DNA of 64,000 bases from Candidatus Omnitrophota bacterium (GCA_029261035.1 JAJDCD010000012.1:6958-70957); one strand, 5' to 3'. Shown: positions 14,573 to 43,299, counted from the stretch's first letter. Made by a program: numbers and translations. The notes: generated from the sequence alone by a model not told the origin.

Positions 14573-14573
14573 G

Positions 14574-15071: not shown

Positions 15072-15097
15072 AAATCTAGAATGGAGAAGGATGAAAA

Positions 15098-16851: not shown

Positions 16852-16876
16852 GTCACAAATAATTAAGGGGAGTGTA

Positions 16877-18535: not shown

Positions 18536-18958
18536 TTCGGAAATAACGACAACTTAGAAGATCCATTCGAACGCCTAATCAGCCAAAAAGAAATGACAGA
18601 CCTCCAAGAAAAACACCCAAACAAAAACTATTGATTCTGACGTACTGTGGTAATGCTGGATAATCTAAGCTCTAACTTATCCAATATTACCACAGCACTT
18701 GGACAACTCTAAAGAGTTGACCACAGACTCAACAGTACTACGACTATATTTTAGTTAAGAAAAGAAAAGCTTTGATTATGGGCCTAATTTAAATAGACAT
18801 AGGATTAAATGGACCATAATCAAAGCCATATTACAGGATTTATATAGCTATTTGAGGATAGAGGAAAAATAAGTATATAGTCCTATAATGTATCTTATGT
18901 TAACTTTACCATATAGTAAATGCATAAATAACGTAAAAACAGCCTTTAATACAAATCC

Positions 18959-19761: not shown

Positions 19762-19782
19762 AGGATGCTCCTTTTGTTATAT

Positions 19783-20274: not shown

Positions 20275-20330
20275 TTTAAACTTTCTGGTAATTCATTTTG
20301 TTTTCTTTTAAATAAATCTTCGCTTTCAAA

Positions 20331-23057: not shown

Positions 23058-23072
23058 TCTTTATCACCTGTT

Positions 23073-24053: not shown

Positions 24054-25036
24054 TATCCAATCTCCTTTTCATTAATAACTTTCATTTTTTCTTCCCCATC
24101 TTTTTCTAAAGGCTCAGCTTCTCTCTCATATGTGTTTTCAATGATTTTCCAGGCCATCTTAAAGTCTTTTTGTATTTCTTCTGTTTGAGGGGTGTGTTTT
24201 GCGTATTTAACCATTTCCAAGGAATTAAAATATTCCATAATTAAACGGACATCTTCCTCAGATAAATTTAATCTCTTTATAGATTTAAATATTTCTAATT
24301 TCGTTTCCTCGATAGCATTAAATTTATATCTTTTTGAGAGGTACAATTTAATCACTTCGGATAAACCATAGTAGTAAGCCTTATGTTCTCCTCTAACCAA
24401 CATCCCACTATCTTTTATTCGATTGAGTGACTGAAAGGCTGCTTCATGAATCTTTAAAGGGGGTGTCTTAAAACGATCTAGAAGGTGAGGGTTTTTCCTT
24501 AAGAAAAAGAAAAGAAATATAAGGAAGAGAAAAAAAACAGCTCCGAAAATTATAAAAAAGAACTTCCAAAATTGAGAAGGTATTTCTGTAACCCCTTTAA
24601 TCCCTCGTATATCCTTCTTAACGGCACCCTTTTTATCAATGGAATGTACCGTGATATATAGTTTATTTGTTTTAATCTCTTTTTCTTTTCCGTCAATATC
24701 CTTAAAGCGAAGAGTTATTGGATCGATTACGTATTCACCCAACGTATAACTTGTTATTTCATAAGTTTTACCTTCAATGACCTGAGCTCCTTCTTTTCGA
24801 GGGGTAATATCAAGGGAAGACTTTATTTCAAAATTTTTTAACTTTTTTTGATCTAAAGAACTTAAAATCTCAATTTGCGGGTTTCTTTTAATTTCAATTC
24901 GATATTCTACTTTATCTCCTACGGTAATAAATGCTTTATTCACCGAAGCTTTAACAGAAATATCACCCACATCTTGAGAGTAAATTAATGGAGTCATTAG
25001 GGAAAACAATATTAAAAATAAAATCGACCGTCTCAA
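24053..25036 (-). CDS. BatD/DUF4381-like membrane protein (signal peptide + extracellular domain + TM + cytoplasmic helical tail)
   Basis: Signal peptide, mid-protein TM (FFFIIFGAVFFLFLIFLFFFL). Genomic context between DUF58 and batA. Confidence 0.4.
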   Translation of the reverse strand: MRRSILFLILFSLMTPLIYSQDVGDISVKASVNKAFITVGDKVEYRIEIKRNPQIEILSSLDQKKLKNFEIKSSLDITPRKEGAQVIEGKTYEITSYTLGEYVIDPITLRFKDIDGKEKEIKTNKLYITVHSIDKKGAVKKDIRGIKGVTEIPSQFWKFFFIIFGAVFFLFLIFLFFFLRKNPHLLDRFKTPPLKIHEAAFQSLNRIKDSGMLVRGEHKAYYYGLSEVIKLYLSKRYKFNAIEETKLEIFKSIKRLNLSEEDVRLIMEYFNSLEMVKYAKHTPQTEEIQKDFKMAWKIIENTYEREAEPLEKDGEEKMKVINEKEIG

Positions 25037-25074
25037 ATTATATCCTCTTCCTCATATAAGCTAACTCTAACAAT

Positions 25075-25959
25075 CTACTGCCTTCTTTTGCGAGCGTCTC
25101 TTTCTTTGAAAAATTTCATCAATGGATCTACATAAGATTCAGTAATATCTATTTCTATCTTATCCAATCCCGTCTTCTTAAATAGCTCGTCTATTTGGTC
25201 TAGATTTGCTTGAGTTTTCATGCAAAATTGTTTTTGAAATTTTTTACTTTGTGTATTTACAATTACCTCATCCCCTGTCTCCAAATCCTCTAATGCGAGA
25301 TAACCTATCTTAGGAATATCTCTTTCTCTTGGATCAAAAAGATGGACCCCAATAATGTCATGCTCTTTCCCTAAAATTTTTAGAGGCTTTTCGTAGTTTG
25401 AGTCTATGAAATCTGAAATTAAAAAGATAACTGCTTTTCGGGTTAGCACCTTATGCATGTATTCCAACACCATAGAAAGATCGGTTTTGTTATACTTAGG
25501 TTCATATGAGAGAATTTCTCGGACTACACGCAAAGCATGTTTTCGACCCTTCTTAATAGGAATGTATTTCTCAACTTGATCTGTAAAAAATATAAGTCCC
25601 ACTTTGTCGTTATTCTTCACAGCTGAAAAAGCGAGAAGCGCTGTGATCTCTGCTGCTATTTCAGATTTAAGCTTTTCACCCGAACCAAAAAAACAAGAGT
25701 ATGAAGCGTCAACAACAAAAAAAACAGTAAGTTCCCGTTCTTCAACAAACTGTTTTATATAAGCAGTTTCACTTCGCGCTGTTACATTCCAATCAATAGA
25801 ACGGATATCATCGCCAGGGACATATTCTCTAACGTCTGAGAATTCAATCCCCTGCCCCTTAAAAACAGACTCATATTCTCCTCCAAACAAATCATTAACT
25901 AAACGATTTGTTTTTATTTCAATGAGTTTTACTTTGCTTAATAGTTCTTTTGGTAACAA
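25075..25959 (-). CDS. DUF58-family protein (vWA-like, MoxR partner)
   Basis: 294 aa with a DUF58-type vWA-like core (VFFVVDASYSCFFG...). Sits immediately downstream of moxR. Confidence 0.65.
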   Translation of the reverse strand: MLPKELLSKVKLIEIKTNRLVNDLFGGEYESVFKGQGIEFSDVREYVPGDDIRSIDWNVTARSETAYIKQFVEERELTVFFVVDASYSCFFGSGEKLKSEIAAEITALLAFSAVKNNDKVGLIFFTDQVEKYIPIKKGRKHALRVVREILSYEPKYNKTDLSMVLEYMHKVLTRKAVIFLISDFIDSNYEKPLKILGKEHDIIGVHLFDPRERDIPKIGYLALEDLETGDEVIVNTQSKKFQKQFCMKTQANLDQIDELFKKTGLDKIEIDITESYVDPLMKFFKERDARKRRQ

Positions 25960-26075
25960 TTTAAGCTCCTTAAGGGACTGTCACTCATCTCCATTCAAAA
26001 TTTTAGCAATTAAGTTCTTAAAGTAAATTAATTTATATTTTGCATCTTCACTTTTTTGGCCCTGCCCTTTACCTA

Positions 26076-26209
26076 GGGGACACGCACTTTTGCCACAATT
26101 GCTGTCGCAATGGTTACAAAAGTCCATGTCCCCAACTTCGAGCTGTGCTAATTTGGGGACATGGATTTTTGATACTGTTGCTTGCAACTGTGTCAAAAAT
26201 GCGTGTCCC
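26076..26209. repeat. 134-bp imperfect palindrome with nested hairpins, intergenic between moxR and the DUF58 gene
   Basis: Outer arms GGGGACACGCACTTTTG and CAAAAATGCGTGTCCCC (16/17). Inner hairpin CATGTCCCCAA-N16-TTGGGGACATG. The intervening segments are also partly complementary. Confidence 0.6.
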
Positions 26210-26231
26210 CTTCCTCAATATTAACCTTCTA

Positions 26232-27233
26232 CTACGGAACTTCTATTTGGTCGAATATTTTCTTAACAATATCTTCGGAAGTCATGTCTTCAGCTTCCGC
26301 CTCATACGTAATTAGGATACGGTGTCTTAGCACGTCCAATCCAATTTGCTTCACGTCTTCAGGTGTAACATAAGCTCTTCCTTTTAGAAAAGCATGAGCC
26401 TTTGAAGCTTTCGTTAACATAATACTTGCCCGAGGAGACCCTCCAACTGAGATTAAATTCTTTAATTCTTCCAATTTATATAATTCTGGATTACGCGTAG
26501 CAAAAACAATATCCAGAATATAATCTTTTATTTTTTCATCGATATAAATATCATTAACCAAACCTCTTAATCGAAGAATGTCTTTAGGATTAATCACTGC
26601 ATTTACATCAATTTCATCGCTTTTAGTAACTTTTTCAAGAATTAATTTTTCTTCTCTTTTATTGGGATAAGTAACGTTAAGTTTAAGCATAAATCGATCT
26701 ACTTGAGCTTCAGGTAGCGGATAGGTCCCCTCTTGCTCAATTGGATTTTGAGTTGCCAAAACTAAAAAAGGTTCTTCAAGCTTATATGTATTTTCACCAA
26801 TAGTAACTTGTCTTTCTTGCATCGCTTCCAGCAAAGCACTTTGCACTTTTGATGGAGCACGGTTAATTTCGTCAGCCAGAATGATATTGGAAAAAATAGG
26901 TCCCTTTTTAGTCGTAAAATTACCGTCTTTTGGGTTATAGACAAGAGTACCAATTAAATCTGCCGGCAAAAGATCTGGCGTAAACTGAATTCTTTGAAAT
27001 TTAGTGTCGATGGCTTGAGCCAAGGTATGAACAGATTTTGTTTTAGCAAGGCCCGGAAGACCTTCAATCAACACATGACCATTTGCCAAGATGCTGATAA
27101 GAAGTCTTTCTATCAGATACTCCTGCCCCACAATCACTTTATGAATCTCAGTGATGAGAGCTTCCACCAATTTGTGTTCATTTTTTACTTTTTCTGTAAT
27201 TTCTTTTATTACTGCTTCCATGACTACCTCCAT
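26232..27233 (-). CDS. MoxR-family AAA+ ATPase
   Basis: Walker A GLPGLAKT. MoxR-type length and C-terminal lid. Confidence 0.85.
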   Translation of the reverse strand: MEVVMEAVIKEITEKVKNEHKLVEALITEIHKVIVGQEYLIERLLISILANGHVLIEGLPGLAKTKSVHTLAQAIDTKFQRIQFTPDLLPADLIGTLVYNPKDGNFTTKKGPIFSNIILADEINRAPSKVQSALLEAMQERQVTIGENTYKLEEPFLVLATQNPIEQEGTYPLPEAQVDRFMLKLNVTYPNKREEKLILEKVTKSDEIDVNAVINPKDILRLRGLVNDIYIDEKIKDYILDIVFATRNPELYKLEELKNLISVGGSPRASIMLTKASKAHAFLKGRAYVTPEDVKQIGLDVLRHRILITYEAEAEDMTSEDIVKKIFDQIEVP

Positions 27234-27264
27234 ATTCTATAGTTATTACGAATGAAAATTCATT

Positions 27265-28164
27265 TTAGTTTCTTGGTTCAAACTCACCTTTGGGTTCGTT
27301 AACCAGTTTTGATTCAAAAAATCGTTCTGACAATCTTTTAACTTCAGTGCTTTGTGCATATGTTAATTTAGTTTGAGAGTACTTACAGGATTCTAATTTT
27401 AATATTATTTCTAATAAAATATTTTTATCTTCGTCTGTCAAAGATTCACAGGACTGTATGTTGTTTTCATCCAAAACAATTAACTGATAGGTGTCACTCA
27501 GATATTTACTTATTTTTTTGGACAACAATTCCATAAACTCTGAAAATTGTCCATCTTCAAGCAAGCTACCCAATCTATTAATTTCATTTAAAACCTCTTG
27601 CTCTATACTAGGTTTTGAATCTTCAATTATCTTCTTCTTTTTTTTCTGTTCTTTAATAAAAAAAACGAGCATCAAAAGAAAAACCACAATTCCAGCAGAG
27701 GTTATCCATTTCCAAGGAATAACTAAGGGTGGTTTTCTAATAGATACATTTTGACCTGGGACTTCAATTTGACTCATAGAGCTCTTCCCCGTCTCTATGT
27801 ATTGAATAGGAAAGGAAGGAATAGTCACTTTGCCAGCTCTTGCTGCAATAAGTGTGAAATTAAAAATTCTTCTTTGAATTAACCAACCATTTTCAGTTTG
27901 AGCAGATTCAGACGATACCCCTGTGTTTTCAATTGTAAAACCTTCTATTTCTAATACGGGTGGAATAAATTTGACCTGATCTTCATTTCCTAACCATTCG
28001 ATGGAAACCTCTAAAATAGCCTTAGAACCAATAGTTGGCTCTTCGTCTTGAAACGTTATACTCTTATTAATGGTTAAGGATATAGGAGAATCTTCTTGAG
28101 CATATAAAGCATTGGCGGGTAATACAAAAAGGACAAGAACTGTAAAAATATAAATCCATTTCAT
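27265..28164 (-). CDS. BatD-like membrane protein (paralogous architecture to 24053..25036)
   Basis: Signal peptide, extracellular domain, TM (ITSAGIVVFLLMLVFFI) and a cytoplasmic helical tail. First gene of the cluster. Confidence 0.4.
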   Translation of the reverse strand: MKWIYIFTVLVLFVLPANALYAQEDSPISLTINKSITFQDEEPTIGSKAILEVSIEWLGNEDQVKFIPPVLEIEGFTIENTGVSSESAQTENGWLIQRRIFNFTLIAARAGKVTIPSFPIQYIETGKSSMSQIEVPGQNVSIRKPPLVIPWKWITSAGIVVFLLMLVFFIKEQKKKKKIIEDSKPSIEQEVLNEINRLGSLLEDGQFSEFMELLSKKISKYLSDTYQLIVLDENNIQSCESLTDEDKNILLEIILKLESCKYSQTKLTYAQSTEVKRLSERFFESKLVNEPKGEFEPRN

Positions 28165-28482: not shown

Positions 28483-31400
28483 TTAGGCAGCTGCTTGAAT
28501 GGCTTTCCAAGCATTGATGTCAGCAAGTAATGTATCCCAAAGAGCGGCTCCACCTGCTAATTCAATACCGGTATATATCTTGGTATCAAATTGCTTACGA
28601 CTGAAGTCCAGAAGTTTCTTAGCAAGCAAGGTAGCTGTTAAGTTGTGTTGTGTTGTATCGCCAGAAGAGACTTTAGCTAATAACAGTCCTCTTTGAGCCG
28701 TTACATCTCCAACAACCTCTTCAACACCCACAAGACCTGTCGGAACTTTCTGCAATTTAATTGTTTCATTTAGACTACGATCGAGATTCTCTGGAGCAGA
28801 AACAATCACTAAGTTATCTGGATAGAGACCATATTCAGCAATAGCCAGATCTCGAACCTCCGTTTTTAAGGCTGCTATTCGTTCAGCATTACCAGAAAAC
28901 CACAAGGTCAACTTTAATGCTTTATCCATACCTGCAAGCAAGACAAGTTCTTGTAAATCAGTAGCCACTGTCTTGTCTGTCACTTCTCTATGCACAAACA
29001 AGGCTCGTGATGTACTTGTATTTGCATCTGGAAGTACATTAAAGATTCGCCCCAATTCCTGAGTTGCCGTTGGTGTTAAGCGAATAACATCCGCACTCAA
29101 GATCGTATTATCTGCGATTTGAGCCAACTCAGCTGGAAGAGCAATATCGAAAGAAGTTAATACTTGTTCTTGAAGTTCTCTTCCGTACTCTTCTAAGACC
29201 AATGGTAGAGTTAAATCTCTTGGTCCTGTAAAAATTGTTTTAAACTCAGGAGTAACAAAGCTTGCAACCTGAGCTCCTAAACTTTTTGCTGCTGTTTGAG
29301 CTTCAACAATTACTCTTGTTTTATCGAGTACCTTAGAAGCATTCTCGATTATAGCTTCAGTTGCTATTGGTGTAACCACTTCAAGAGGTGAACTATTTTG
29401 TCTTATAGATTCCCCCACAAGAAAACCAACACGTTCACCTATGGATTCAACAATACTTGGCATATCTAATCCAAGTATCGTCGTAAATACACCAGAAACA
29501 CCACCCCCATTAATAACGTAGTCTACAGCCCACAGAATACCTGTGTCGAATAATTGCGCAGATAATTGACGTGCTTTATTAGCAACAAATTGTTCATTTG
29601 CAGCACCTGCAACAATTTTAATTCCAGCTTCACTCAATCTTGCAATAGTATCCTGATCCAAAATATATTTAATTGCTGTTGGACTAAATACAGATGCCGG
29701 AACATCATAAATCTGATCTGATTTTGCAAGCAAAGCAACACTTCCATTCTCAAGACTACCAAAATTAAATGTTGAAACATCTGGAATTGTAGGAACGTTG
29801 GAATAAGTTTCTTTGACAATAGCATGTTGACTATCAAGTTCACTCATAACGACAATAGCTCCCTCTTCTATCAAAGCTTTAACTAAAGGAGTTCCAACAC
29901 CACCCTGTCCGCCTTGAACAGCTATTATTTTACCTTCAAGAGTTACATCTTCACCAAATACTTTTTGAATAGAAGCCTTAATCCCATTAAAAACACCTCT
30001 TGCTGTCCAAGGAGATGCATTATCACCCCCAAGAGCAAGATCTTTGTGCCCTACAACGTGACTTGGGGAAGTTTCCCCTATCGTCAACAATAAGGGTAAT
30101 GGTGTATTCATGTCTTGTCCCACAAATGTCACTGGTATATTCTCTAAAACTCTACCAAGACTGAGATATGCATCTCTTAATTTTCCTCTTTCAACCTGAG
30201 AAAGGTTCTCAATTTTTTTATTTGGATCAAGACCATCTACCTGAATCATTGTCTTTGACCCGCCTAAAGGTAATAAATCGAGACCAATCATGGCATTCTT
30301 ACTTGTCATAGCTCGAGATAAAGTCAAAGCTGAAATCATTTGAGCTTCTCTAGAATCCCATTTTAATCGGCGAACACCTCCAATAGCACCAGACATCAAC
30401 CATTGTTCTGTTCCATATTTCTTATAAGGAAGTAAATGATGTAAACCAATAATAGCTGTATAACCAACACTCTCATTTCTAGCAATAACAAGTCCCACAT
30501 GACCTTCCCAAACATCACTTACATGAGAAGGTAAACTAGAAGGATCTGTTATTCTGGTTACCTTTGTTCCATCATTTAATGTCAGACCTTCTTCAGGAAT
30601 CAAATTCTCAACCCATTGACGTCCTAGTATTTGCATTTCCTTGAATGCTCCATCCCCCAAAGAATTTGCTATAGCAGATTCTAATTTAGATTGTTCATCA
30701 ATAATAAACGAAGGAACATTTTTAAGCTTTCCTAGAAAATCTCTTCTACCAGAAACTTCTTGTTCCCAATAACCAGAATCAACTGTAGTTGTAATGCTTA
30801 AAAGATCTGATGGATCAATATCCACCCCATCAAAATGAACACTCCCCTTTTTAGGGACAAGACCAACAGAAGTTTCAGTATAGTTATCAGCTCCACTAGC
30901 TCTCTCTAACGCCCAAAGAATAACTCGAAAGTTTTCCATAAACCCAGGCCAAATATAACTACCATCTTCGTTTTGTCTAAACCAATTAACATGAAAGAAA
31001 GCTGGAGCTTGCTCTCCAAGAGAACCAATCACTCTTAATTTATTTTCCATATCTGCTGCTTCTGTTTGAGAAAAGAAAGGACGATTTGCAAAAGGATCTC
31101 TTTTCATAACACCTTCTTCTCCAGCTGCTGCTGCTGTACCCATAACACCCATAACAGCACCATCATAGATACCTGATTCTATCGTAGGAAGCTGACGTAC
31201 TAAAAGTTCTCCTTCAGGAATACGACCACCCCAGAAGATTGCGCTAATACGAACACCCTTAGGATCTCTCCAGTGTTCTGACATGATTTCATCTTGAACA
31301 CGTTCTGCAGATGCTGCATAGCGTGCATTTGGATGAGCCCATTCTCTTGGCTCTAGCTTTTTGGACACTTTATTCTTTTGAAGTCGTTCTCCAGAAGACC

Positions 31401-34400
31401 AGTCAGCAATCTTTTCTCCGGTCCAATCTTCCCAACCTTCTAGATCTGGAGTTCCAACTTTAAGGGTTTCAGACCCTTCTATATATGTTTCTTCTCCAAA
31501 TGCCCATGCTTTGTAATGAGCTTTACTTTTAAATCCTGGAGGGAATTTGGTTTTATCTGTCCACCATACTTCATTTGTAATTGTGTTAATTGCAACATTG
31601 GTAAATATTGTCCCCGTGTTTGGACCAATGGCTACCATTGCTTTTGGTGTTTGCTCCGCATTCGTACCTTTTGCAACACCAAAATAACCATTCTCAGCAT
31701 TGGTTGCATAAAGCCCTTCACCTTCACGAGCACGTGCGAAAATAATGTCATCACTGACAACACGAACTTCGTACTTACCTTTAAGAGCATCTGGAACTTC
31801 GATCATAGCAAAATTCGTTTTCCCAGAAGCACTTGGCGCTGCATATGCTACATAATCAAGTTTTCCTGTTTCAAGATTCTTGATTTCAACCACAGCCATA
31901 TGCTCTGCTAACCAACCTTCTTTAATTGCACTCCAAGTTGCATAACGAAGTGCATGAAACTTTTTGTTTAATAGAGCATTCCCACCATAATTAGAGCCGT
32001 AAGACATAATCAACATTTCATCAGGAAAAATACCGTAATTCCTTAAATCGACACCATCTTCAGCTTCTTCAATAAACTCTTTTCTAGCATCGCCTTCAAG
32101 ACCCAACTCATTCGCTTCTTGTGTTGCTTTCTCATTCGCTTCTGCAATAAGAGAGTATATTTTATCTATATCACCAGGTTCATGAACACCACGAACAAAT
32201 TTTTCTTCATCACCTAGTTCTGCCAGAGCTACATTACCTACCTTAGCAAGTCTGAACATATTTAAAGCCACATATCGACTTGATGTTACCTGAACACCCA
32301 CCTGAGAAAGGTCAGAGCCAGCAGTTCCCATTAGATATGGAAGAACATACATTGTTTTGCCAGCCATAGAACCTTTTAACAGACCTTCCATAACTTCTTT
32401 CTTTTCTGCTGTTGGACTCCAGTTGTTATAGTGCCCTGCATCCTCTGGGTTTTCTGTTGCGACAAACGTCTTTTTAACAGAACGCGCCGTATCTTTTTTA
32501 TGAGAACGTGTGTAATAGTTACCATCTGCGAGTTTTGTTAATTCTCCTGCGGCAACAGCTTGCTCAAGTAAAGCAGCGTCATCTGATTCGTCTACAATCT
32601 GAATATCCGCAGCCCCTGTAAACTCAACCATTTCACGAATCCAGCTTTGCAACGCAACATTAGATAAAGTTGAAATCTTATCTTCAATTGCTGCACCTAA
32701 ACTAGAAGCTTCTGTTGTTGTTTGAGTCCAATCGTATACGCTCAAAGGAAAAGTATCATAAACAAAGTCATGAGCCTCCAAAGCTTTCTGAGCTAAAGTC
32801 AATCGACTTATATTTTGAATTGTTGCTTTTTCTGATACTTTCGCTTTGGCATTACTAAGTTTTTTAGTAACATTTTCACGAGAATCAAAAATTGCATCCA
32901 ACAAAGCATCTCTCTCAGAAGCATTCGATTCAATTACAGCTAGCAGCACACGCGAACCATAAGTAATCCATTCATCGTGAGTCAATTTTCTTTTTAATAT
33001 TTCCATAATGACAGGAGATTTGCTTTTATCAAAAGCCCCACCTGGATTATCATTAAAGTATTCAGTTACCGTCAAATCTCTTTCTTGTAACATTTCAAGA
33101 ATAAGTTCTTTAGTAACTTTTTCGCCATTTTTAACTTCTCTACCATCATGAAGAATTTGTCCACCTTCATCCAACTCGATACCATGAATTTCTAACAACT
33201 TAACCCAATGCCAGAAAATTTCATAAGTAGCAAAGTCGTTCATTAAACGTTTACCTGTAAATACGTGTTTACCCGCATCATTGGTAAGACGTTCTTTTTC
33301 CGTTTTATAATCATCAACAGCGGCTGCATTATTTCCATTCAACTGTTGGAACCCATACTCTGAAGCCATAAAAATTGCATAACGAATTCCATCTAGTGTT
33401 ACTTTACCAGTTGGAGTTGTGAATATTTTCGCATAAGCTTCTTCAGAGAATAACTCATCTAAATCTTTTTGAGTAACGATATAAGGAGTAATTCCTCCTG
33501 CATCAGAAACAAGTCCTAAGTTAATGAATTTTTGTCTTTCTTCTACAGATAAACCATCTACTAAAGCTTGCAAGTCTTCTCTAGTTGCTTGTAACGGTTT
33601 AGCGCCTGCCTCTACATATTTCGTGGATACAGTAGCAACCCAACTTTGACGATAGGCATCAAACTCAACTCCATCTATAACAAGAAGACCTGTTAATCGT
33701 TCACGGAGTTTATCTAAAAACATTGCTTGAACAGCACCGTCATTAGTAGCTTTCTTAGCCGCAGCAATCTCTTCCGTGTCTGTTGCTTTAATTGGAGTTT
33801 CCATTACAGCAGACATTCCACCGATCGGCATACCATTCTCCAGAGCACCCGTTTCACGATTTCCTGTTACTAGTACTGTAATTAAAGCATTCCTACGCGT
33901 GTATTCCGTCATAGAGGCTTCTGTCATACCAACGCTATTAGGATCAGGAAATACTTTTGAAGGGTCATCTTTAACCATCTCAAAACGCCCATTAATATAA
34001 TCCCAACGACCTACATTAGGTCCAATTAAGTTTTCTCTTAAAATCCAAAGAATTACTTCTTGCTGAGCAGCATAAGTCCCTCTTTCATTCAACATTTCTA
34101 TTTTTATAGAACCCCTTTCAAGACCTAGAGTTTCTTCAAATCGCTTAAGAATCTTAGAAATAATCAAAGCTTCTTCAGGAGATTCAATTTTAGGGACATA
34201 AAAGTAAACATTACTCTCATTTTCTTTTTGAGCATCATAGTTATTCAATAAATGGATTGTAAATGCTGCAATCGTCGCAGGAATATTTCTACCATCTAAA
34301 GTAATTTGTCTGTTTTTTAGATGAAGCCCAGGAACACGATGAAAAATGGTTGGCCATTGATCACGATCCACTTTGATACTATATTCTTTAGGTTCACCTT

Positions 34401-37400
34401 CTTTATTTTTCTTTGTAGGATGTTTGAACGCACGTCCTATCCAGGTACCCGATATCACTTCCTTAATATAAGTCCATGCTTGATAGAGTTTTTGTTGATA
34501 GTCATTACCCGCGTCCTCCCAGTCAAACATCCAAGACACAGCGCCTTTTAACCCTGCGTTAATAGCTCCCATCAACATACCCATATCATCGGCTGGCCCC
34601 GTTCCTTGCAGACCGGCTTTTAGAACTTCTGCTGGGACTGGCACTGTTGAGTTCATAACCCAACGATACTGAGAGTCTTTATTTATTAAACCTTCACGAA
34701 TTTGTTCAACCGTTAAAGTGTTTCCATCCGCGTCGGTCAATTCTTTTGAAGGGTCCGCAAAACCATAACCTTCACCCGAATCTCGTCGAGCTTTTCTAGC
34801 GTGTAGTTGCTTTCCAATTTCTAAACCAAATTCACGCGTCAACGATTCAATCGTTCCTTCTACATTTACCGTTCTGCCATTTACTTCTTTATCACCGAAA
34901 AGACCTGAAAAATCTTCAGCCAAATCTTCGCGAACTACAAGCCCTTCTGTTGTGGTATTTACATCAACATCAGATTTAGCAGAAAGATTAAATTGATTAG
35001 ATGTATCAACATCATTACCTTTTTCTCTTGAAGAGGCTGTTCCATTTGCTATTCTGTTAATAGATGCTAATTGAGCACCTCTCACTTCAGCACCTGCAGA
35101 ATTTTGATGTCTATTGGTGAAAGGAGATCCTATTTTCTGACCCACCTGCTGAACCATAGACACAAATGCATAAGCACCCACTTTAACTAATTCTCTCATT
35201 ACTCGATAAACGTTTAAATGAGCAACATGATCTTGAAAAATGGTTACGAATTGGAATGCAAAACCTTGCTTACCCATATCCGTACTAAAAGTTCTTAAAG
35301 CATCAACCATCGCCTGAACATCTTCAGGGTTGTCACCCCATGTATCCGGTTGACCCCAATCAAAATCTTTTGATTGCATTGCTTTTTTAATATTAGCTCT
35401 TTGCTCTAAGCTCAAAGCAGCATGCCAGTTATCAGGGTTATTCCAGTTAAAAGATGGAGATAAATTCACTGCCTTAAGTGGTTTAAAACCTAACTCTGGA
35501 TCATTGTCTACAATATCAGCAAACGCTTTTGCATTTTTTAAATCGGGTTCTTTTTGTTCCATCCACAAAATATCTGCTGCACGAGCTGCCATTCTCAAAC
35601 GGATCCCTGCATTTGTAACACCCAACGAGTTATCAATTTGAAAAAAACCTTCACTTGTTTGAGCTAACGTGTGATCCCAATAAATTTCAATATTAAAACT
35701 ATTTATTGCTAACTCTCTTAAATCCTGAAAATCCAAAGTAATCTCTAAAGGATTAGTAGCTTCGTTCCATGCCTCGACTTCACCGCTACGGCCAGCTTCC
35801 ACCAAAGCTCTTTCAACAGCTTGAGGATAAGTCATAACATCTGCTTCTTGAGCCCAAACATTAGTCAACCTAGAAGATGCCGCAACCTCCTCTTCCCAGC
35901 CGGAGACTTCCGCATCTAAGACTTCTTGAATTGTCCACTCTTTACCAGAAGCATCAACAACAACGTTATTTAAACGCACTCTAAAGTTCGGATCTTCTAG
36001 CTCAATAGCAAGTCTATTCGACCAAAGTTCATCCACATAAACAGGGTTTCCACCATACTTTGGAGTCAAACTTTCATTATGCTCTAAAAGCCTCTCTTTT
36101 TCTTCTCCTCTAATATTCCAAACCTCTCTAATAGAAGCCGCAATTTTGGGAAAATTAGCTTCGATTTCCGAAAGCCTAACTTCAGGGTCAACACCTCTGT
36201 TATATTCTTTTTTATGAGATAAACGAATCACATCTTTTAAAGAAGGTATTCCTTCAACTGTAGCACCTTTAATAAAGTAATGATCTTCAGCTGAATTATC
36301 ATCTTCAAGTAACTTTGCTCCTTCAGCATCACTGCGTGCAATAATTACCAAAGTTGAGCTTCGACGAATGGCTTCATAACGAATATCCCATAGACGCTTC
36401 ATAAACTCACCTAAAGAAGTCAACACTTTACCAGCCATATGACCACATTTTTTTTGTCCATGTGCTTGGTCTTCAATATGAATCGATGCTGATTTTGCAG
36501 CAATAAACAAAGAAGCTAATTGAGTCGGAGATTTATGAGCAGTATCTCCATCAGCGTAAATAGGAATTAATGCATTTAATAAAACATCATTCAAATTTTC
36601 AAGAACTCCAGCCACTGCTTTCTCTCTATTTGCCTTTAAGTTGTCACTAGAAAAGCCTACATAATTTTCTCGATTACTAATTAATTCAGAAATAAAGCCA
36701 TCCCCTAATTCTGTAGCAAAGTTTTCAAAATCTTCTCTAACTTCTATTGTAAATATATACTGTCTTGCTCTAACAGAATCGACAAACGAGCGAATCAATG
36801 CTGGCTTCATTTGCTCTAAAGATGCTTTGTTAGGAGCCCTTCTTAATATTTGGAATAAATTGGGAAAGAACTTTTTAGTTAGATCTCTAGACAAAGTTCT
36901 GAATTGATATTGTAAGTTTTTGTCCAAGTTAACTAAACCCGTGTAAATTTCTTTAACTTCATTTGGAACACTATCCAATTGGTACTGAGCTAAATCTGGC
37001 TCCCCCATATGATGCGATGTTTGCCAACCACTTAAATACAAAGCTTCTGCCCCTGCCTCAACAGCTGCTTTAGCTGTTACAGAATCCATCACACCACCGG
37101 TCGCTGCAAAAGTACCTTGCTCCGCATGCTTCATAACAAGATAATACAAAGAATCTGCTAATGCATTAGCTGTTTCTGGCACATCTAAAACGCTCCCTGC
37201 CAATCTGTGAAACTCTTCAGCAGTCCATTTCTTATCCTCTCTCATAAATTTAGCAATTCGACTAAATCGATCTTGAGCTAAGAATTTTTTAAAATGTGCT
37301 ACTGTGGGTTCAATTCTTTTAGCCTCTGGCAAAGCACCCAAACTATTGGCAGATACATTAACCACTTCATTAAAAACTGGAAATTCCGCCAACAGATCCT

Positions 37401-39195
37401 GCCCCTCAACAGAAAGTTGAATTCCAACTCTGTTATTCCAGGAAGAAAATTGTTTTCCCCAAGGACTTTCGTTAAGCGTAGTCTGAAGCCCTAAAATATC
37501 CCCAGCTTCTATAACTCCGCTACCAACCAAAGCTCTTCTAGCAGAAATGATGAATTCAGGAGCAACACCACCAAAGTAATCAACACCTAAAGCAACCAAT
37601 GCTTCTACAGAAGTTCCTCCAAAGAAAGGTGTTTCAATTGTTGAGTCCTTTAAACCATGGCTACTTGTCTTAAGGAATGAATGAACGTAAGTTTCTTGCC
37701 CTTCAACAGAATCAATTTGAGGAGCAATTAAAGAATAGTTCGATTTGTCTTCATAATAATTCTTAAAAGATTCAGAGTGAAACCCCCCTGTAATAATGGC
37801 TACATTCTTAGCTCTTCTAGATTCAATTAAAGAAGTAGCTTTATCAAACATACCTGAATCACGCTGAATAGCACCTTCGTAAAATTGCACCGATTTCCCG
37901 AATAGAGCTTTCACTTCTTCTAAATTCTCAATTTGTGTTTTCTTGACACGAGACAATGTATTGATTTCATGAATAATTCGACTAGGGTCTAAAGTGTTTC
38001 CTTTAGACTTCAATGCCTTATAGTCTTTTGGTGTTAACTGTAGCTCAAATAACCGGCTCAATAGTTCAAAGTTTAAAATCAGTTCCAACACCCTCTTCTG
38101 TTCTTTAGACTCTGTTAATTTATCTAAGATCTGAGCATTTAACTTCTCAGATTCATTAAACAACCTATCTCCAACCAACTCATTTTTCAAAAGAAAGTTT
38201 CCAACAAAAAATGAAACATTAGGATATACATCAAAATTAAAATTTGCTGGCAATTTCCTAACCACAGATTCCATCAACAGCGCAAGAGCACCCTCAGCAT
38301 CAGAATCAACAGAGTTAAAAAATGCTTTCAACTGTTTGTGCTCTTTAGCAGAAACAGTTTTGCGTGCAAGTTTTAAAAAAGCATTTTTTTCTTTGTGAAA
38401 CTGTTCTAAATTAAATTGATCTTGAAACTTTTGGAGTTTAAAAACTCTAAAAAGCATTGGCCAATCCAATTGCTGACCCGGTTGATCAAAATCAATATTT
38501 AAGATTTGATTCGCTTGTTTTTTTAAATTTTCTAATCTCTGAATAAATGTGATTTTCTTCTGGTCAAAGTCTTTTTTGTTTTTTAAACTAAGTCGAATAT
38601 CTGCATTCAACAAAGAAGACTTGAGGCCTTCTACCTTAGCTTTTATATTGGATAAAAACAAACTCGTCTTCTCTCTTTGAGATAATACAGCTACAAAGTC
38701 TTTTGAGTTACTCATATAAGATGCTTCATCTTCTATACCATAAGCTTTAACTTTAGGATTATTCATTAAGAATAATTCTGCTCCCTTAAGATAAGCTTTG
38801 CGAGTTAAATCATCTGCAATTTGTGCGTTGATTTTTTTATCACGAACAAACTGAAGCAGTTCAGGTTCTAACTCCGAAACGGAGCCTTCTAAAAGAAGTA
38901 AGTCTATTTTTTTGTTTTGATTTAAATAATTAAGAATGGATTCTATATTTTTTTGGGCTTGATAATTACCATGAGCTGTTTGAATATGAAATACATTTGT
39001 TTCATGTATTTTGGGTGTTTGATGCTGAATAACACCAAGCTCACGAGGTAATGTAAAATTTGAATTGTTAAGTGATACGGATGAAACTGTATTTAATTGC
39101 GTTAAACCTTGCGAATATCCAGTCCCTGAGAAAATAAAAGTTAATGCAACGAACAAGTTTATTGCCTTTAATCTAGCGAAGTAATTAAGAAACAT
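28483..39195 (-). CDS. Giant 3570-aa multidomain protein: signal peptide + unknown N-domain + isocitrate lyase (long form) + malate synthase + PEP carboxykinase (GTP) + Glu/Leu/Phe/Val dehydrogenase-like + unknown C-domain
   Basis: One ORF with no stop over 10.7 kb in AT-rich DNA. RBS GGAG 9 nt before the ATG. Signal-peptide-like N-terminus. ICL: [139 protein letters not shown]. GDH-like: [31 protein letters not shown]. Confidence 0.8.
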   Translation of the reverse strand: [3570 protein letters not shown]

Positions 39196-39687
39196 ATGAT
39201 GAATCTCCTTTTCGAGGATTATTTTTTTGAAAGCAAAACAAGTTTGCTAGGGTATTTCTTTTGCTAAATTTAAATACATGTTTTGAAAGAACAAAACGAT
39301 AATTACGTTTTCCGCAATCCGTTGATTTTTTTCGAATTCATCCGTGAAGAGAGATCAAAATATAATAGAATTTCAGATAAAAGTCAATTTAATGTTGAAT
39401 GAAAAGAAAAAAAAATAATTAAAAAAGTAGTGTTAAAAACATTTAAGAATTTACTTTTCGATTCATTTCTCTCTTATTTTGAATATTGCTAAATTATTTA
39501 CATTAAAAAAATACTTATTAAATTTATTTATAATATTATTTATTAAGCTGATTTTAAAATACTTACATCATCCCCTATTATTTATAAGGAAGAAGTTCAA
39601 TAATTGATTGTAAAAATAGCATATCTATCATGAATATTAATTATAATAATAGAGGTAATTCAATATAGGATATATTTCTTAGGCAGG

Positions 39688-39726
39688 AATAAAAAAATAA
39701 GGGAGCAGTGCAATAACCGCTCCCTT
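39688..39726 (-). terminator. Rho-independent terminator downstream of dnaK
   Basis: Minus strand reads AAGGGAGC-ggttattgcact-GCTCCCTT followed by ATTTTTTTATT. Confidence 0.6.
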
Positions 39727-39746
39727 ACCTTAAGCATTACTTAATA

Positions 39747-41690
39747 CTATTTAGTTTCTTTATCTTTGTCTTTATCTTCGTCAACAACTTCGAAATCAGC
39801 ATCAACAACATCTTCTTTTTTTTCTTCTGGTTGTTCTTTGCTATCACCTGTTGCTTCCTGATTTTTAGCAGCTTCTTCTTGCTGTTTTTTAGCGGCTTCT
39901 TCATACATTCTCTGAGCCAACCCTTGAGAAGCTTGCCCTAACTTTTCAGAAGCTTTATCTAAAGTTTCTTTGTCTTCAGTTTTCAAAGCTTCTTTAGCTT
40001 TCTTAATGGCATCTTCAATACTCTTTTTCTCTTCGTCCGTTGCTTTGTCTCCACTTTCTTTCAAGGTTTTTTCAACAGAATAAACAAGAGTATCCAAGTT
40101 GTTACGTGATTGAATCAGTTCATGCTTTTTCTTATCTTCTTCTGCATGAGCTTCCGCTTCTTTCACTAGCTTTTCAACATCATCTTTAGACATTCCAGCA
40201 GAAGACTCAATACGAATTTTTTGTTCTTTTCCAGTAGCTAAATCTTTAGCGTGAACATGAACAATACCATTCGCATCAATATCAAACGTAACTTCGATCT
40301 GAGGAACACCTCTAGGAGCTGCTGGAACACCTACAAGATCAAACCGGCCTAGCGTTCTGTTATCCGTAGAGATTTCTCTTTCTCCTTGAAGAACATGAAT
40401 GCTTACAGCTGTTTGATTATCTGCAGCTGTAGAAAAAATTTCTGATTTTCTGATAGGAATAGTGCTATTTCTATCAATTAAGCGAGTCATAACACCCCCT
40501 AAGGTTTCAATACCCAAAGACAAAGGTGTAACATCCAACAAAAGAACGTCTTTAACGTCCCCTTGAAGAACTCCTGCTTGAATTGCAGCACCGATAGCAA
40601 CCACTTCATCCGGATTCACCCCTTGGTGAGGATCTTTTCCAAACAATTTTTTTACTCTTTCTTGAACAGCAGGCATACGACTTTGTCCGCCTACCAAAAT
40701 TACTTCATCAATCTCAGAGGCACTAAACCCTGAGTCTTTTAATGCTTTTTCACAAGGCGAAATAGAACGATCTACTAAATCACTTACTAATTGCTCTAAC
40801 TTTGAACGTGTAAGCGTCATTACTAAATGCTTTGGCCCAGATGCATCGGCTGTAATGAATGGAAGATTAATTTCTGTTTCCATAGAGGTTGAAAGTTCAC
40901 ACTTTGCTTTTTCAGAAGCTTCTTTTAAACGTTGAAGAGCTGTTTTGTCTTTAGACAAATCCACACCTTCTTGTTTTTTGAATTCTTCCATAATATGTTC
41001 TGTTACTGCATGGTCAAAGTCATCTCCACCTAGATGAGTATCTCCATTAGTTGCTTTTACTTCAAAAACCCCATCTCCAATTTCTAAAATAGAGATATCA
41101 AAAGTACCTCCGCCTAAATCGTAAACAGCAATTTTCTCATCCTTCTTCTTATCTAAACCATAAGCAAGAGAAGCCGCTGTTGGCTCATTAATAATACGAA
41201 GTACTTCTAAGCCAGCAATTTGCCCAGCATCTTTAGTTGCCTGTCTTTGACTGTCATTAAAATAAGCAGGAACAGTAATAACAGCTTGAGTAACAGGCTC
41301 ACCTAAATAAGCTTCTGCATCTTGTTTTATTTTTTGAAGTATGATGGCTGAAATTTCTTGAGGCGTTTGATCTTTACCATTAGCTTCAATAAGCACATCC
41401 GAATTTTTTCCTTCTTTTACTTTAAAAGGAACAAGCTCAGCTTCCCTACCAATTTCATTGAAATTTCTTCCAATAAATCTTTTGGCGCTAAAAATAGTAT
41501 TTTCAGAATTGGTTACCCCTTGTCTTTTTGCGGGCAAACCAACAAGTCTTTCCCCAGCTTTTGTAAAAGCAACAATAGAGGGCGTTGTTCTATTACCTTC
41601 TTTATTTGCAATAACCTTTGGTTCTCCACCTTCCATGATTGCAAAACATGAATTCGTTGTTCCTAAATCGATTCCGATAACTTTTCCCAT
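39747..41690 (-). CDS. dnaK: Chaperone DnaK (Hsp70)
   Basis: [18 protein letters not shown] and other canonical Hsp70 signatures. 647 aa. Confidence 0.95.
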
Positions 41691-41715
41691 GACATTTCTC
41701 CTTCTTTTGATTAAT

Positions 41716-41729
41716 AGCTAAATTTAGCT
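41716..41729. promoter_or_regulatory. Perfect 14-bp palindrome AGCTAAATTTAGCT upstream of dnaK (candidate operator)
   Basis: Located ~25-40 nt upstream of the dnaK start codon on the transcribed strand. It does not match the CIRCE consensus. Confidence 0.4.
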
Positions 41730-41859
41730 TACCCTATTACTATCAAGTAGCATGCCAAAGACCTATTCTCTGATAGTTTCTTTAACTTATTGATATATAA
41801 TCATTTAGGATTTTTTAGTATTTTGATTATTGAGTCAGAAGTGTAACCCTGTAACGGGA

Positions 41860-41878
41860 TGGCACAAATAGTGTGCCA
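41860..41878 (-). promoter_or_regulatory. TGGCACA-N5-TGTGCCA palindrome: sigma54-like -24/-12 element (minus strand TGGCACactatTTGTG) or hairpin terminator of the upstream TCS operon
   Basis: Same TGGCA(C/T)-N-CTATTTGT core as the pilin sigma54 promoter. Lies 22 bp downstream of the NtrC-type regulator stop and ~170 nt upstream of dnaK. On the plus strand it is followed by a T-run, so it could equally act as a terminator. Confidence 0.35.
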
Positions 41879-41899
41879 TTTTTAATAAAAATAGCTCTA

Positions 41900-43270
41900 C
41901 TACAGTTCGTATTCGTCAATTTTTCTATATAACGTTCTACGAGATATTCCTAATATCTTTGCGGCTTTAGATTTATTACCATCTGCCTCAACGAGTTTCT
42001 GACGAATCATTTCTTTTTCCATATCATGAATATTACCTTGGGTCCTGTTATCCCCAGAAAAAGCTAAACTATTATCAGAAGAAATGTTCTCTCCCCTTAT
42101 ATCATTTGGAAGATCAAATAGCTCTAAAACAGACTCATTAGCAAGAACGATCAATCTTTCTATTACATTTTTTAGTTCTCTAATATTACCAGGCCAATTA
42201 TAATGTTTCATTGCCTCTAAAGCATTATCTGCAATGCCTGTAATTGTCTTGTGATTGATCGCCGCAAAATGCTTAATGTAATGCTCGACCAACGGCTTTA
42301 TATCTTCTAGTCTTTCTCTTAAAGGAGGGGCTTCCAACAAAATAACATTAACCCTGTAAAATAAATCTTCTCGAAAAGTTCCTTTCCTTACCTCATCTAG
42401 AAGGTTTCTATTAGTAGCAGCAATAAGTCGGACATTAACCTTTATTGTTTTCGTACCTCCAACTCGTTCAAACTCTCCTTCTTGAAGCACCCGAAGAAGC
42501 TTTACCTGCATTGACTCTGGAATTTCCCCAATTTCATCCAAAAACAATGTTCCATTATGAGCTCTCTCAAATCTACCGATCTTTCTCTCTGTAGCTCCAG
42601 TAAAAGAACCTTTTTCATGTCCGAACAACTCACTTGCTAATAAGGTCTCTGTTAAAGATGCACAGTGGACTGCGATAAAAGAATTATCTTTTCTAGGACT
42701 CATATTATGGATTAAATGAGCAATCAGCTCTTTTCCTGTTCCGGTTTCACCTTGTATTAATACGGAGGAATCGGATTGAGCCACTTTTGTTGCCATATCA
42801 ATAGCTTCTTTCATCTTTTGAGATTCACTGATTACCTCAAAAGCTTCGTATTTATCTTTAATAATATCTTTTTTTAATTCCTTATTCTCCAATTCTAATT
42901 TTTGACTTGATAATGCTTTCTTAACCATAAACTCTAACTCATCTAAATTAACAGGTTTAGTCAGGTAGTGAAACGCCCCTGCCTTAATAGCTTTTACCGC
43001 ATTTTCTACAGAACCATAAGCAGTCAGTAATATTACCGGAATTTGAGCATCAAGGGCTTTAATTTGGTGAAGTAAGGACATCCCATCAACATCTGGCATT
43101 CTTATATCCGAGAGAACTACATTTGGAGCTTCGCTTTTTACTATGGCTAGAGCTTCTTCAGCTGAAGAAGCTAAAGAAATATCGTAGCCCAAAGAACCTA
43201 AGAATTTACCCAAACCTTCTCTCGTGTTCTTTTCATCATCAACAATTAAAATGGTTTCCCAATGCGACAT
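41900..43270 (-). CDS. Sigma54-dependent NtrC-family response regulator
   Basis: REC domain, AAA+ activator (GETGTGKE, GHEKGSFTGA) and Fis-type HTH (KAAKILGISRRTLYRKI). Confidence 0.85.
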   Translation of the reverse strand: MSHWETILIVDDEKNTREGLGKFLGSLGYDISLASSAEEALAIVKSEAPNVVLSDIRMPDVDGMSLLHQIKALDAQIPVILLTAYGSVENAVKAIKAGAFHYLTKPVNLDELEFMVKKALSSQKLELENKELKKDIIKDKYEAFEVISESQKMKEAIDMATKVAQSDSSVLIQGETGTGKELIAHLIHNMSPRKDNSFIAVHCASLTETLLASELFGHEKGSFTGATERKIGRFERAHNGTLFLDEIGEIPESMQVKLLRVLQEGEFERVGGTKTIKVNVRLIAATNRNLLDEVRKGTFREDLFYRVNVILLEAPPLRERLEDIKPLVEHYIKHFAAINHKTITGIADNALEAMKHYNWPGNIRELKNVIERLIVLANESVLELFDLPNDIRGENISSDNSLAFSGDNRTQGNIHDMEKEMIRQKLVEADGNKSKAAKILGISRRTLYRKIDEYEL

Positions 43271-43299
43271 TTCAAGCTCCTTTTTTACAAAATTCAGAA

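Follow-up and report, generated by a model that had tools for sequence, protein, structure and literature searches.

A 64,000-nucleotide stretch from a Candidatus Omnitrophota bacterium (GCA_029261035.1, JAJDCD010000012.1:6958-70957; herein the window) carries on its minus strand, at 28483-39195, a gene for a 3570-residue protein. Behind a Sec-type signal-peptide-like N terminus, the chain joins a long-form isocitrate lyase (ICL), a malate synthase (MS), a GTP-dependent phosphoenolpyruvate carboxykinase (PEPCK), and an amino-acid-dehydrogenase-like (DH) module. We put at about one in two the probability of the explanation favored here, that of a modular, Sec-signal-bearing multi-enzyme protein that would be exported and in which the node leading from the glyoxylate bypass to phosphoenolpyruvate (PEP) is fused. 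The gene itself is genuine and lies on the chromosome of an Omnitrophota bacterium. Its product is a small, signal-peptide-only member of a poorly understood Omnitrophota class of fused multi-enzyme proteins, and its particular module set (glyoxylate bypass, PEPCK, and leucine-dehydrogenase-like DH) has no earlier description.

A Single Reading Frame of 3570 Codons

The frame opens with an ATG, and the one other open reading frame (ORF) of at least 100 residues within its limits is of 131 residues on the plus strand. At a GC content of about 38.5%, with a stop frequency of about 0.065 per codon, 3570 successive sense codons would arise by chance with a probability of about 1e-105 ((1-0.0655)^3570). 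The first-pass annotation, made from the sequence alone, had read the locus as one gene rather than four, preceded by a good ribosome-binding site, and both points hold: the frame is uninterrupted in AT-rich DNA, and AAGGAG, read from the sequence, stands 9 nt 5' of the ATG (39205-39210, minus strand). It had also raised the question of a chimeric join. The GC content of third codon positions (GC3) lies between 0.20 and 0.26 in all modules of the giant gene and between 0.21 and 0.32 in the other genes of the window; because GC3 is thus uniform and host-like, a compositional sign of such a join is absent. A recent horizontal origin of the PEPCK-DH part was considered and rejected, GC3 being host-like in every module.

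Catalytic Signatures in Four Enzyme Modules

The four enzyme families claimed for the chain were all recovered by Pfam above gathering scores (ICL, 204 bits; MS_TIM-barrel, 112; PEPCK_N, 186; PEPCK_GTP, 306; ELFV_dehydrog, 38.5), the sole subthreshold family being ELFV_dehydrog_N (PF02812; 16.9 bits against a gathering score of 25.3). The domain limits first proposed were right to within about 50 residues; they need correction in that PEPCK extends to about residue 2845 and the DH core spans about residues 2935 through 3255.

The long-form ICL module (residues 635 through 1390; 35026-37293, minus strand) was delimited by Pfam, Protein Data Bank (PDB) matches, and a motif survey. It scores 204 bits against a Pfam cutoff of 26 (PF00463), in a match that insertions break into four stretches. 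The best PDB matches are the fungal long ICL 7ebe and Mycobacterium tuberculosis ICL2 6edw; alignment to 7ebe shows the motifs SGWQ, ADGDTAH (residue 882), IHIEDQ (907), KKCGHM (915), and NLSPSFNW (1246) to be kept. A linker rich in Asn, Ser, Thr, and Asp (residues 1391 through 1424; 34924-35025, minus strand) leads into the MS module, of a divergent long type (residues 1425 through 2164; 32704-34923, minus strand; Pfam, PDB alignment, and motif survey), which scores 112 bits against the MS_TIM-barrel cutoff of 26.4 (PF01274). Equivalents of the catalytic R166 and of the Mg ligands E250 and D278 are kept in the alignment to Escherichia coli malate synthase A (3cuz). The likely equivalent of D447, the catalytic Asp of the C-terminal lid, lies in the motif MNDFATYEI; the C-terminal half does not align to 3cuz and has no MS_C Pfam match. 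The module shares about 50% identity with stand-alone MS encoded in metagenome-assembled genomes (MAGs) of Acidobacteria, Verrucomicrobia, and Lindowbacteria, in which MS and a long ICL are encoded by adjoining separate genes without signal peptides.

The GTP-PEPCK module (residues 2165 through 2847; 30655-32703, minus strand) contains two insertions. Over residues 2172 through 2844 it matches PRK04210 (NF003253) with 523.9 bits, above the equivalog cutoff of 504, and it matches M. tuberculosis PEPCK 5i67 with 329 bits; YGGNALLNKK, EGWLAEHM, the P-loop PSASGKTN, SDDI, NWFR, and WPGF are all kept in the alignment to 5i67, so that the metal- or substrate-binding KK and His, the DD motif, and the guanine-binding NWF/WPGF elements are present. 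The last enzyme module is a leucine/aromatic amino-acid-dehydrogenase-like cassette (residues 2848 through 3304; 29284-30654, minus strand). It scores 38.5 bits against 23.4 for PF00208 and 106 bits against a cutoff of 600 for the ScyB model NF035922, and the closest structure is the leucine dehydrogenase (LeuDH) 8hpe (96 bits). Aligned to LeuDH, it keeps the equivalents of carboxylate-binding K68, catalytic K80, D115, and N262 (in TSKNA, GGSKT, GQDMNT, and GAANEQ) and the glycine-rich NAD loop QGGQGGVG; the side-chain pocket is hydrophobic (M, G, V, V).

Among the giant proteins surveyed, KKCGH is present in nine of nine ICL modules, and the other signatures are kept in most and missing in some. 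Such retention, in all four modules here and in most relatives at 26 to 50% identity, points to selection on catalysis, and judged by these signatures the modules are probably active enzymes.

Orthologs Differ by Whole Cassettes

The first-pass annotation had not recognized the architecture from bacteria and had proposed a search of related MAGs for orthologs. That search succeeded, and the idea of an isolated case without precedent is not supported. The closest ortholog, P0156 (3060 residues; P0006, at 3052 residues, is its companion), is syntenic and has the same signal peptide, conserved N-terminal domain (N-domain), ICL, MS, PEPCK, and conserved C-terminal domain (C-tail), without the DH module. 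It was read on six contigs, among them three from different sources (JGI 3300019487; NCBI GCA_973787085.1, CCZJPZ010000003.1; Logan SRR7811987). The window protein is colinear with it over residues 1 through 2847 and 3305 through 3570 (36.5% identity); at the DH site P0156 has an Ala/Pro-rich linker of about 107 residues instead of the 457-residue cassette. Its MS is of a different subtype, 26% identical to that of the window protein and with a Pfam MS_C match.

A second syntenic ortholog, in the Omnitrophota MAG NC_groundwater_1969 (JACROU01; loci L041 and L018), has the signal peptide, N-domain, ICL, MS, and C-tail but neither PEPCK nor DH; a contig end interrupts it, and its protein P0001 is named Omnitrophica. 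At about 13560-13640 of L041 a frameshift in the ICL "SPSFNW" region divides the gene call into 1213 and 584 residues, after which ICL and MS share one frame; this may be a sequencing error or real pseudogenization. The DH cassette in turn is about 45% identical to modules in P0013 (6218 residues; named Omnitrophota) and P0016 (1634 residues), and many other long Omnitrophota proteins bear PEPCK or DH modules.

Since the orthologs differ by cassettes and by MS subtype, modules have been inserted and swapped in place. The chain would have been built stepwise, with PEPCK and then the DH cassette entering between MS and the C-tail at junctions that carry a shared motif. The tripeptide SLG occurs eight times in the window protein against 1.6 expected (P = 0.0004). 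In the context [A/N/K]-x-SLG-[A/D] it marks four of the five boundaries between modules (residues 618, 2165, 2845, and 3305; 37336-37344, 32695-32703, 30655-30663, and 29275-29283, minus strand), the ICL-MS linker being the only boundary without it, and the DH cassette is bracketed by two copies; the other four copies lie inside folded modules. SLG stands at all five boundaries of P0156, directly after the N-domain in P0001 and in the N-domain-AceK fusion of locus L042 ("AASLGG"), and before the C-tail in L018. In the lineage of loci L029 and L032, GFG is found at equivalent boundaries instead. The AAxSLG element may serve in processing or in docking, or may be a linker at which cassettes recombine.

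A Putative Export Signal Heads the Chain

The first 28 residues (39112-39195, minus strand) read MFLNYFARLKAINLFVALTFIFSGTGYS/QGL, where the slash marks the putative cleavage site. By inspection they have the layout of a Sec signal peptide: an n-region with R8 and K10, a 14-residue hydrophobic core (AINLFVALTFIFSG), and the c-region TGYS/Q, with small residues at -3 and -1 (G-Y-S/Q). P0156 begins with MYLNRFVGMRTVS...GLA/QGL, and start and signal are conserved in P0001 as well, in keeping with the Sec-like signal proposed at first pass. A signal-like N terminus heads every N-domain protein examined whose N terminus is available. AXA-like c-regions recur in P0156, in the proteins of L029, L032, and L012, in most long PEPCK-bearing relatives, and in very divergent members.

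The signal segment is the only convincing hydrophobic segment in the 3570 residues, as it is in P0156, the L029, L032, and L012 proteins, and most of the long relatives that bear PEPCK. A second transmembrane (TM) helix at residues 532 through 550 was considered and rejected: its Kyte-Doolittle hydropathy is 1.53, it contains Asp and Glu, and the P0156 equivalent is clearly polar. With R8 and K10 ahead of the helix and no charge for 25 residues after it, the positive-inside rule would place the N terminus inside and the chain outside. The modules are only 26 to 47% identical between the orthologs, whereas seven of nine flanking genes are 47 to 84% identical (the downstream BatD-like gene, 35%); divergence faster than that of the neighbors is a pattern typical of exposed proteins. 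From these sequence features, Sec export with action outside the cytoplasm, at the cell surface or a host interface, seems to us to have slightly better than even chances, and we favor it over a membrane-tethered cytoplasmic location.

Conserved N- and C-Terminal Domains

The N-domain (residues 29 through 525; 37621-39111, minus strand) has an α/β core with a large helical insert and no Pfam match. Its fold is probably of the Tiki/erythromycin-esterase/ChaN/TraB type, although the helical insertion of about 300 residues is unlike that superfamily. Its structural neighbors include the injected effectors HopBA1 and RRSP, the toxin PMT, and ChaN; a sequence profile run against the PDB gave no matches, and Foldseek against the PDB gave nothing significant. 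The fold family includes secreted or extracytoplasmic members (ChaN, HopBA1, RRSP), and Tiki and RRSP are peptidases. H75, E103, and H473 are invariant in eight of eight aligned sequences, with E103 28 residues after H75; we take them to resemble the His-Glu-His set of the esterases, a likeness of residue types and not of positions superposed on EreC or Tiki.

Single-sequence, word-indexed searches with the N-domain and then with the C-tail gave no match; relatives of the N-domain were found with a profile built from locus-derived homologs. The domain is conserved in P0001, P0002, and P0003 and at loci L007, L009, L014, L029, L032, and L042. In some cases a gene of its own beside a giant gene encodes it; in others it is joined to polytopic membrane proteins, a SecA-like protein (P0003), or the isocitrate dehydrogenase (IDH) kinase/phosphatase AceK. 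The genes downstream of the giants at L029 (22500-26654) and L032 (25372-31815) encode a signal peptide and an N-domain followed by about 15 TM helices, which suggests that in these bacteria the domain is widely used to head membrane proteins as well as giants. L012 was dropped as an N-domain homolog, as it has a different N-terminal domain, common to P0015 and P0009. This second type ("QSLPTILNLPxPG"), seen in P0015 and L012, has close variants in P0009 and P0020.

Between N-domain and ICL lies a junction region (residues 526 through 634; 37294-37620, minus strand) with a weak hydrophobic stretch (residues 532 through 550), whose P0156 equivalent contains charged residues, and the first SLG (residues 618 through 620).

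The C-tail (residues 3305 through 3570; 28486-29283, minus strand) is conserved in three orthologs and is 42 to 43% identical to the C termini of P0156 and L018, with the motifs GPRDLTLP, SRALF, LKLTxW, IPTG, NLTATLLAK, and IHTGEELAGG. Profile searches of Pfam and the PDB with it gave noise only, and a single-sequence AF2 model was unusable (pLDDT 40). All three orthologs end in Ala-Ala (QAAA, ESAA, and QVAA in the window protein [28486-28494], P0156, and L018, respectively), which resembles C-terminal Ala-Ala degradation or recognition tags.

Related Giants and AceK

More distant giants also hold homologous MS (34 to 45% identical) and ICL (32 to 37%) modules in one chain, in the order MS then ICL and without PEPCK. 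The Elusimicrobia proteins at L007 (6930 residues) and L009 (6135 residues) combine DH-like, MS, and ICL modules with many TM helices, L009 adding a fructose-1,6-bisphosphatase (FBPase) by Pfam; L014 (3252 residues) has MS, ICL, and a glpX-like FBPase. The L029 protein (3322 residues) has N-domain, triosephosphate isomerase (TIM), MS, and ICL, and that of L032 (4040 residues; 9911-22030) has N-domain, two tandem MS, and ICL. Like the window protein, these Elusimicrobia and groundwater giants have signal-like N termini and an N-domain, fused or in the next-door gene; unlike it, they show the MS-ICL order of stand-alone aceB-aceA-like pairs, TIM or FBPase, and the GFG motif. P0005 (4177 residues) unites a pyridoxal-phosphate (PLP) enzyme, two ELFV domains, a PGAM-type phosphatase, PEPCK, and TIM. 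Comparable proteins are P0011 (5945 residues), P0013 (6218 residues), and P0015 (3029 residues), in which PEPCK or DH-like modules occur with other domains; the partners across these four proteins include PLP enzyme, PGAM, TIM, methyltransferase, and GalE-like domains. P0013 and P0015 are named Omnitrophota; the N termini of P0005, P0011, and P0015 are signal-like, and that of P0013 is not.

In two lineages, L029 and L042/L043, an AceK homolog directly adjoins the giant ICL/MS gene. At L042/L043 it forms part of a 1165-residue product (signal peptide, N-domain, and AceK) encoded between dnaK and the giant gene. Both AceK proteins (L042, 6234-9731; L029, 19954-22533) have signal-like N termini. 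In the 64-kb window tblastn found no AceK, and tblastn and blastn found no remnant of one in the 551-nt gap upstream of the giant gene. The position of AceK beside fused ICL/MS genes argues that these genes have a true function of the aceBAK kind. That an IDH kinase/phosphatase should bear an export tag is no less paradoxical than the tagged enzyme chain. From module content, the glyoxylate bypass and gluconeogenesis appear to be the recurring theme of the family, coherent across relatives; the metabolon reading of the first-pass annotation gains support from the catalytic residues kept here and from the linkage of AceK, TIM, FBPase, and PGAM in relatives.

Proposed Function and Competing Explanations

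In the explanation we favor, the ICL module would cleave isocitrate to glyoxylate and succinate, the MS module would join glyoxylate and acetyl-CoA to form malate, and the PEPCK module would convert oxaloacetate and GTP to PEP and CO2, the malate dehydrogenase (MDH) step being supplied in trans. The LeuDH-like module would act on a hydrophobic amino acid and NAD+ to give a 2-oxo acid, NH3, and NADH. The cell would live as an episymbiont or predator and have the chain at its surface or where it meets a host, with leaked or host cofactors at hand. We infer activity, channeling, export, and site of action alike from sequence.

Several points weigh against this explanation. Acetyl-CoA, GTP, NAD(H), and the ATP and IDH needed by AceK are cytoplasmic, and we know of no bacterial periplasm that supplies them; an exported chain could therefore hardly be catalytic unless a host or prey provided these compounds. 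The chain lacks MDH, which leaves a gap in the pathway. ICL scores 229 bits against an NCBIfam equivalog cutoff of 275.9 (TIGR01346) and MS 128 bits against 594.5 (TIGR01344), which sets MS apart from the A-type equivalogs, and both modules contain large insertions. The N-domain has the null PDB searches noted above. Only one NCBI contig is known to carry the form with DH, and with 64 kb of the genome in view, stand-alone copies of the enzymes may lie elsewhere.

The most serious competitor, to which we assign a smaller yet substantial probability, is a metabolon tethered to the membrane's cytoplasmic side by an uncleaved, or nonexporting, N-terminal helix, which would run an ordinary glyoxylate bypass and PEP synthesis under AceK/IDH control in the manner of aceBAK. 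It accounts for the cytoplasmic cofactors that all modules need, given that catalytic residues are kept, and for AceK adjoining the giant gene in two lineages. Proteins that combine the N-domain with nucleotide-dependent parts also have zero or probably an even number of TM segments between the two (L042 AceK, 0; window protein, 0; P0011, a hairpin-length stretch of about 42 residues; P0003, 1 to 2), and in the polytopic Elusimicrobia giants three TM segments after the signal would put DH and FBPase inside. West-Roberts et al. (10.1101/2023.11.21.568195) likewise allow that the localization of glycolytic domains may be mispredicted. Against it stand the positive-inside rule, which places the chain outside; the family-wide conservation of AXA-like cleavage motifs, which a plain anchor would not need; the lack of a second TM segment in the window protein and P0156; and a divergence faster than that of seven of the nine flanking genes compared.

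An explanation that fits an exported as well as a cytoplasmic location is that of a polyprotein precursor from which cleavage at the AAxSLG junctions, perhaps carried out by the Tiki-like N-domain of the chain or by a different peptidase, would release separate enzymes. The enrichment of SLG and its boundary placement in the window protein, P0156, L042 AceK, P0001, and L018 suggest it, as do the GFG analog in the L029/L032 lineage and the peptidase activity of Tiki and RRSP. We nevertheless consider it unlikely: the motif could equally be a shared flexible linker or a recombination scar, four copies fall within folded modules, and the N-domain may be an esterase or noncatalytic.

Rather more speculative is a special case of export in which signal peptide and N-domain would form a delivery tag to or into a host or prey cell. 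The chain would use isocitrate, acetyl-CoA, oxaloacetate, and amino acids of the host to make PEP and small acids that the episymbiont can take up, and in relatives AceK would switch off host IDH. This reconciles the signal peptide, kept catalysis, cofactor need, and tagged AceK. It also agrees with the effectors HopBA1 and RRSP and the toxin PMT among the structural neighbors of the N-domain, with fast divergence, with reports of host dependence or predation in Omnitrophota, and with a type IV pilus/secretin cluster in the window (2252-6407). On the other side, the gene has no linked delivery system and the bacterium no known host, noneffector proteins with the Tiki/EreA fold exist as well, and the passage of a 390-kDa chain across two or more envelopes is without precedent. 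A rerouting of host central carbon to exportable C4 acids and PEP by modules released at AAxSLG sites is doubtful; if true, it would introduce a novel type of effector, in which a metabolic pathway is secreted in place of a toxin.

That the modules are noncatalytic, enzyme-derived scaffold or adhesin parts of a giant surface protein is improbable. A role as adhesin or coat has often been proposed for giant proteins of Omnitrophota, and fast divergence, the large insertions in ICL, MS, and PEPCK, and the subequivalog scores of ICL and MS would suit such a role. Active-site and cofactor-binding signatures are nevertheless retained by each of the four modules and by most of the family, which makes this structural reading the least likely account of what the modules do, and the AceK linkage in relatives also points toward catalysis. 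An assembly or annotation artefact (a chimeric join, or neighboring genes merged through sequencing errors) is very improbable, even though the exact 3570-residue product is recorded on one contig only and the ICL frameshift in the JACROU01 ortholog shows that such MAG genes can be error-prone. A 10.7-kb frame without a stop in AT-rich DNA, uniform GC3, colinearity with an ortholog that six contigs, of three or more sources, contain, synteny of both flanks, and a DH cassette placed exactly between two junction motifs and resembling modules of other long proteins (among them P0013, named Omnitrophota) all speak against it.

Relation to Known Systems

Omnitrophota are reported to be host-dependent or predatory and to have giant surface proteins. 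Among Omnitrophota proteins of at least 10 kAA (thousand amino acids), Nielsen and Lui (2026; 10.64898/2026.06.07.730766) distinguish a "multi-enzyme metabolic" class; 94% of the proteins in that catalog have a signal peptide or TM helices, and 9 to 13% a signal peptide only. In West-Roberts et al. (2023; 10.1101/2023.11.21.568195), domains of TIM, GPI, FBPase, PGM, aldolase, and PPDK are placed in those portions of Omnitrophota giants that are predicted to be extracellular, with the proviso that the localization may be mispredicted. Long proteins of the multi-enzyme type that bear signal peptides or TM helices are thus described in both preprints, which further removes the appearance of an isolated case. 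Single chains that tile central-metabolism domains (hexokinase also among them) in the same phylum present the same localization puzzle.

The window protein shares with the multi-enzyme class an Omnitrophota genome, four single-copy enzyme families, and a signal-like N terminus. It has 3570 residues, and the catalog threshold is at least 10,000; at this length it would not have entered the 2026 catalog. The members of the long-protein catalogs are mostly polytopic and rich in HEAT, GT, and SecA domains, and Archaeovorins (at least 30,000 residues) have many TM helices, a divergent SecA DEAD domain, and HEAT/GT/TPR domains; the window protein has none of these features and a signal peptide only. 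PEPCK is mentioned in neither preprint, and ICL and MS are not in that of 2023 (10.1101/2023.11.21.568195); the one of 2026 names ICL and aceB solely in scoring them absent. Glutamate dehydrogenase is absent from the same 2023 text, in which leucine dehydrogenase was not searched for. AceK did not occur in the sections of either preprint that were consulted, no search having been aimed at it.

In nematodes and Euglena a bifunctional glyoxylate-cycle protein unites ICL and MS in one chain, with ICL N-terminal in nematodes. The window architecture exceeds fusions of that type, as the first-pass annotation had held: the nematode/Euglena protein is eukaryotic, peroxisomal or glyoxysomal, and of about 1000 residues, and by description has no Sec signal, N-domain, PEPCK, DH, or C-tail. 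In E. coli, aceBAK links MS, ICL, and AceK functionally as separate soluble cytoplasmic proteins; in the present family the enzymes are fused, and the chain and the AceK of relatives carry signal peptide and N-domain. Even P0156/P0006, the closest system, has at its locus an AceK fusion gene where the window has the 551-nt gap only.

The glyoxylate shunt (ICL, K01637; aceB, K01638) is scored absent in 176 of 176 complete Omnitrophota genomes in the 2026 preprint (10.64898/2026.06.07.730766). If the modules are active, some Omnitrophota would hold the glyoxylate bypass and a PEP-forming step within signal-tagged giant genes. Annotation in the style of KEGG Orthology might miss such fused, divergent modules, because ICL and MS fall below equivalog cutoffs; alternatively, the trait may be confined to lineages outside the 176-genome survey. 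Metabolic reconstructions of host-dependent Omnitrophota may then need revising. The family offers a compact test case (3-4 kAA, few or no TM segments) for why cytoplasmic enzymes sit behind export signals, with concrete handles in the cassette-differing orthologs, the SLG motif, and the N-domain shared with AceK. The ortholog series is also an unusually clear case of a bacterial enzyme gene that has gained domains in place and exchanged modules.

Genomic Setting and Other Features of the Window

The gene order leading to the giant gene is alaS, hisDBHAF, trpEG, trpD, trpC, histidine kinase, σ54 response regulator, and dnaK, and it is followed by genes for BatD-like, MoxR, DUF58, BatD-like, BatA, and BatB-like proteins. 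From trpD/trpC on, the same order is found in JACROU01 (L041 and L018), in GCA_973787085.1, and in a JGI metagenome (L042/L043). This shared synteny, with flanking proteins 47 to 84% identical to those of L042 except for the first BatD-like protein downstream (35%), assigns the window to an Omnitrophota chromosome. The upstream block (39747-44466, minus strand) consists of a histidine kinase (43300-44466), an NtrC-type σ54 response regulator (41900-43270), and dnaK (39747-41690), which bears out the neighbors named in the first-pass annotation. Its order is repeated in L041 and L042/L043, and the L042 flanks are 47 to 77% identical. The downstream block (20331-28164, minus strand; BatD-like, MoxR AAA+, DUF58/von Willebrand factor A [VWA], BatD-like, BatA [VWA], and BatB-like VWA-TPR) has ORFs of matching size in L018 and the same order in L042/L043, with MoxR 84% identical. 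The link between this MoxR/Bat block and the giant gene is one of synteny only.

The gap between dnaK and the giant gene (39196-39746; 551 nt, 23.6% GC) contains a strong dnaK terminator (39694-39731) and σ70-like promoter matches, the best of which, by consensus match only, is TTGACT-17-TATATT (10/12; 39359-39387, minus strand). A σ54 promoter for the giant gene was considered and rejected, matches to TGGCAC-N5-TTGCW being at chance level (19 against 20.2 expected) and absent from the gap. Just upstream of dnaK, beside the σ54 activator gene, are two -24/-12-like σ54 matches with two mismatches each (41742-41757 and 41863-41878, minus strand).

On the plus strand (181-6407), a second σ54 response regulator gene (181-1563) precedes a type IV pilus-like cluster (PilM, 2252-3304; secretin, 4971-6407), about 22 kb from the giant gene. 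Giant Omnitrophota genes have been reported near type II secretion system- or type IV pilus-like systems. At about 18500-19800 the GC skew changes sign (cumulative maximum at about 18 kb) and gene orientation switches from plus to minus, so that genes converge, which is compatible with a replication terminus region. The BatB-like VWA-TPR gene (20331-23057, minus strand; 908 residues) shows an AT skew of -0.375 in 20001-22000, and at 21018-21489 it contains imperfect tandem repeats of 90 nt and 15-21 nt that probably encode a low-complexity linker.

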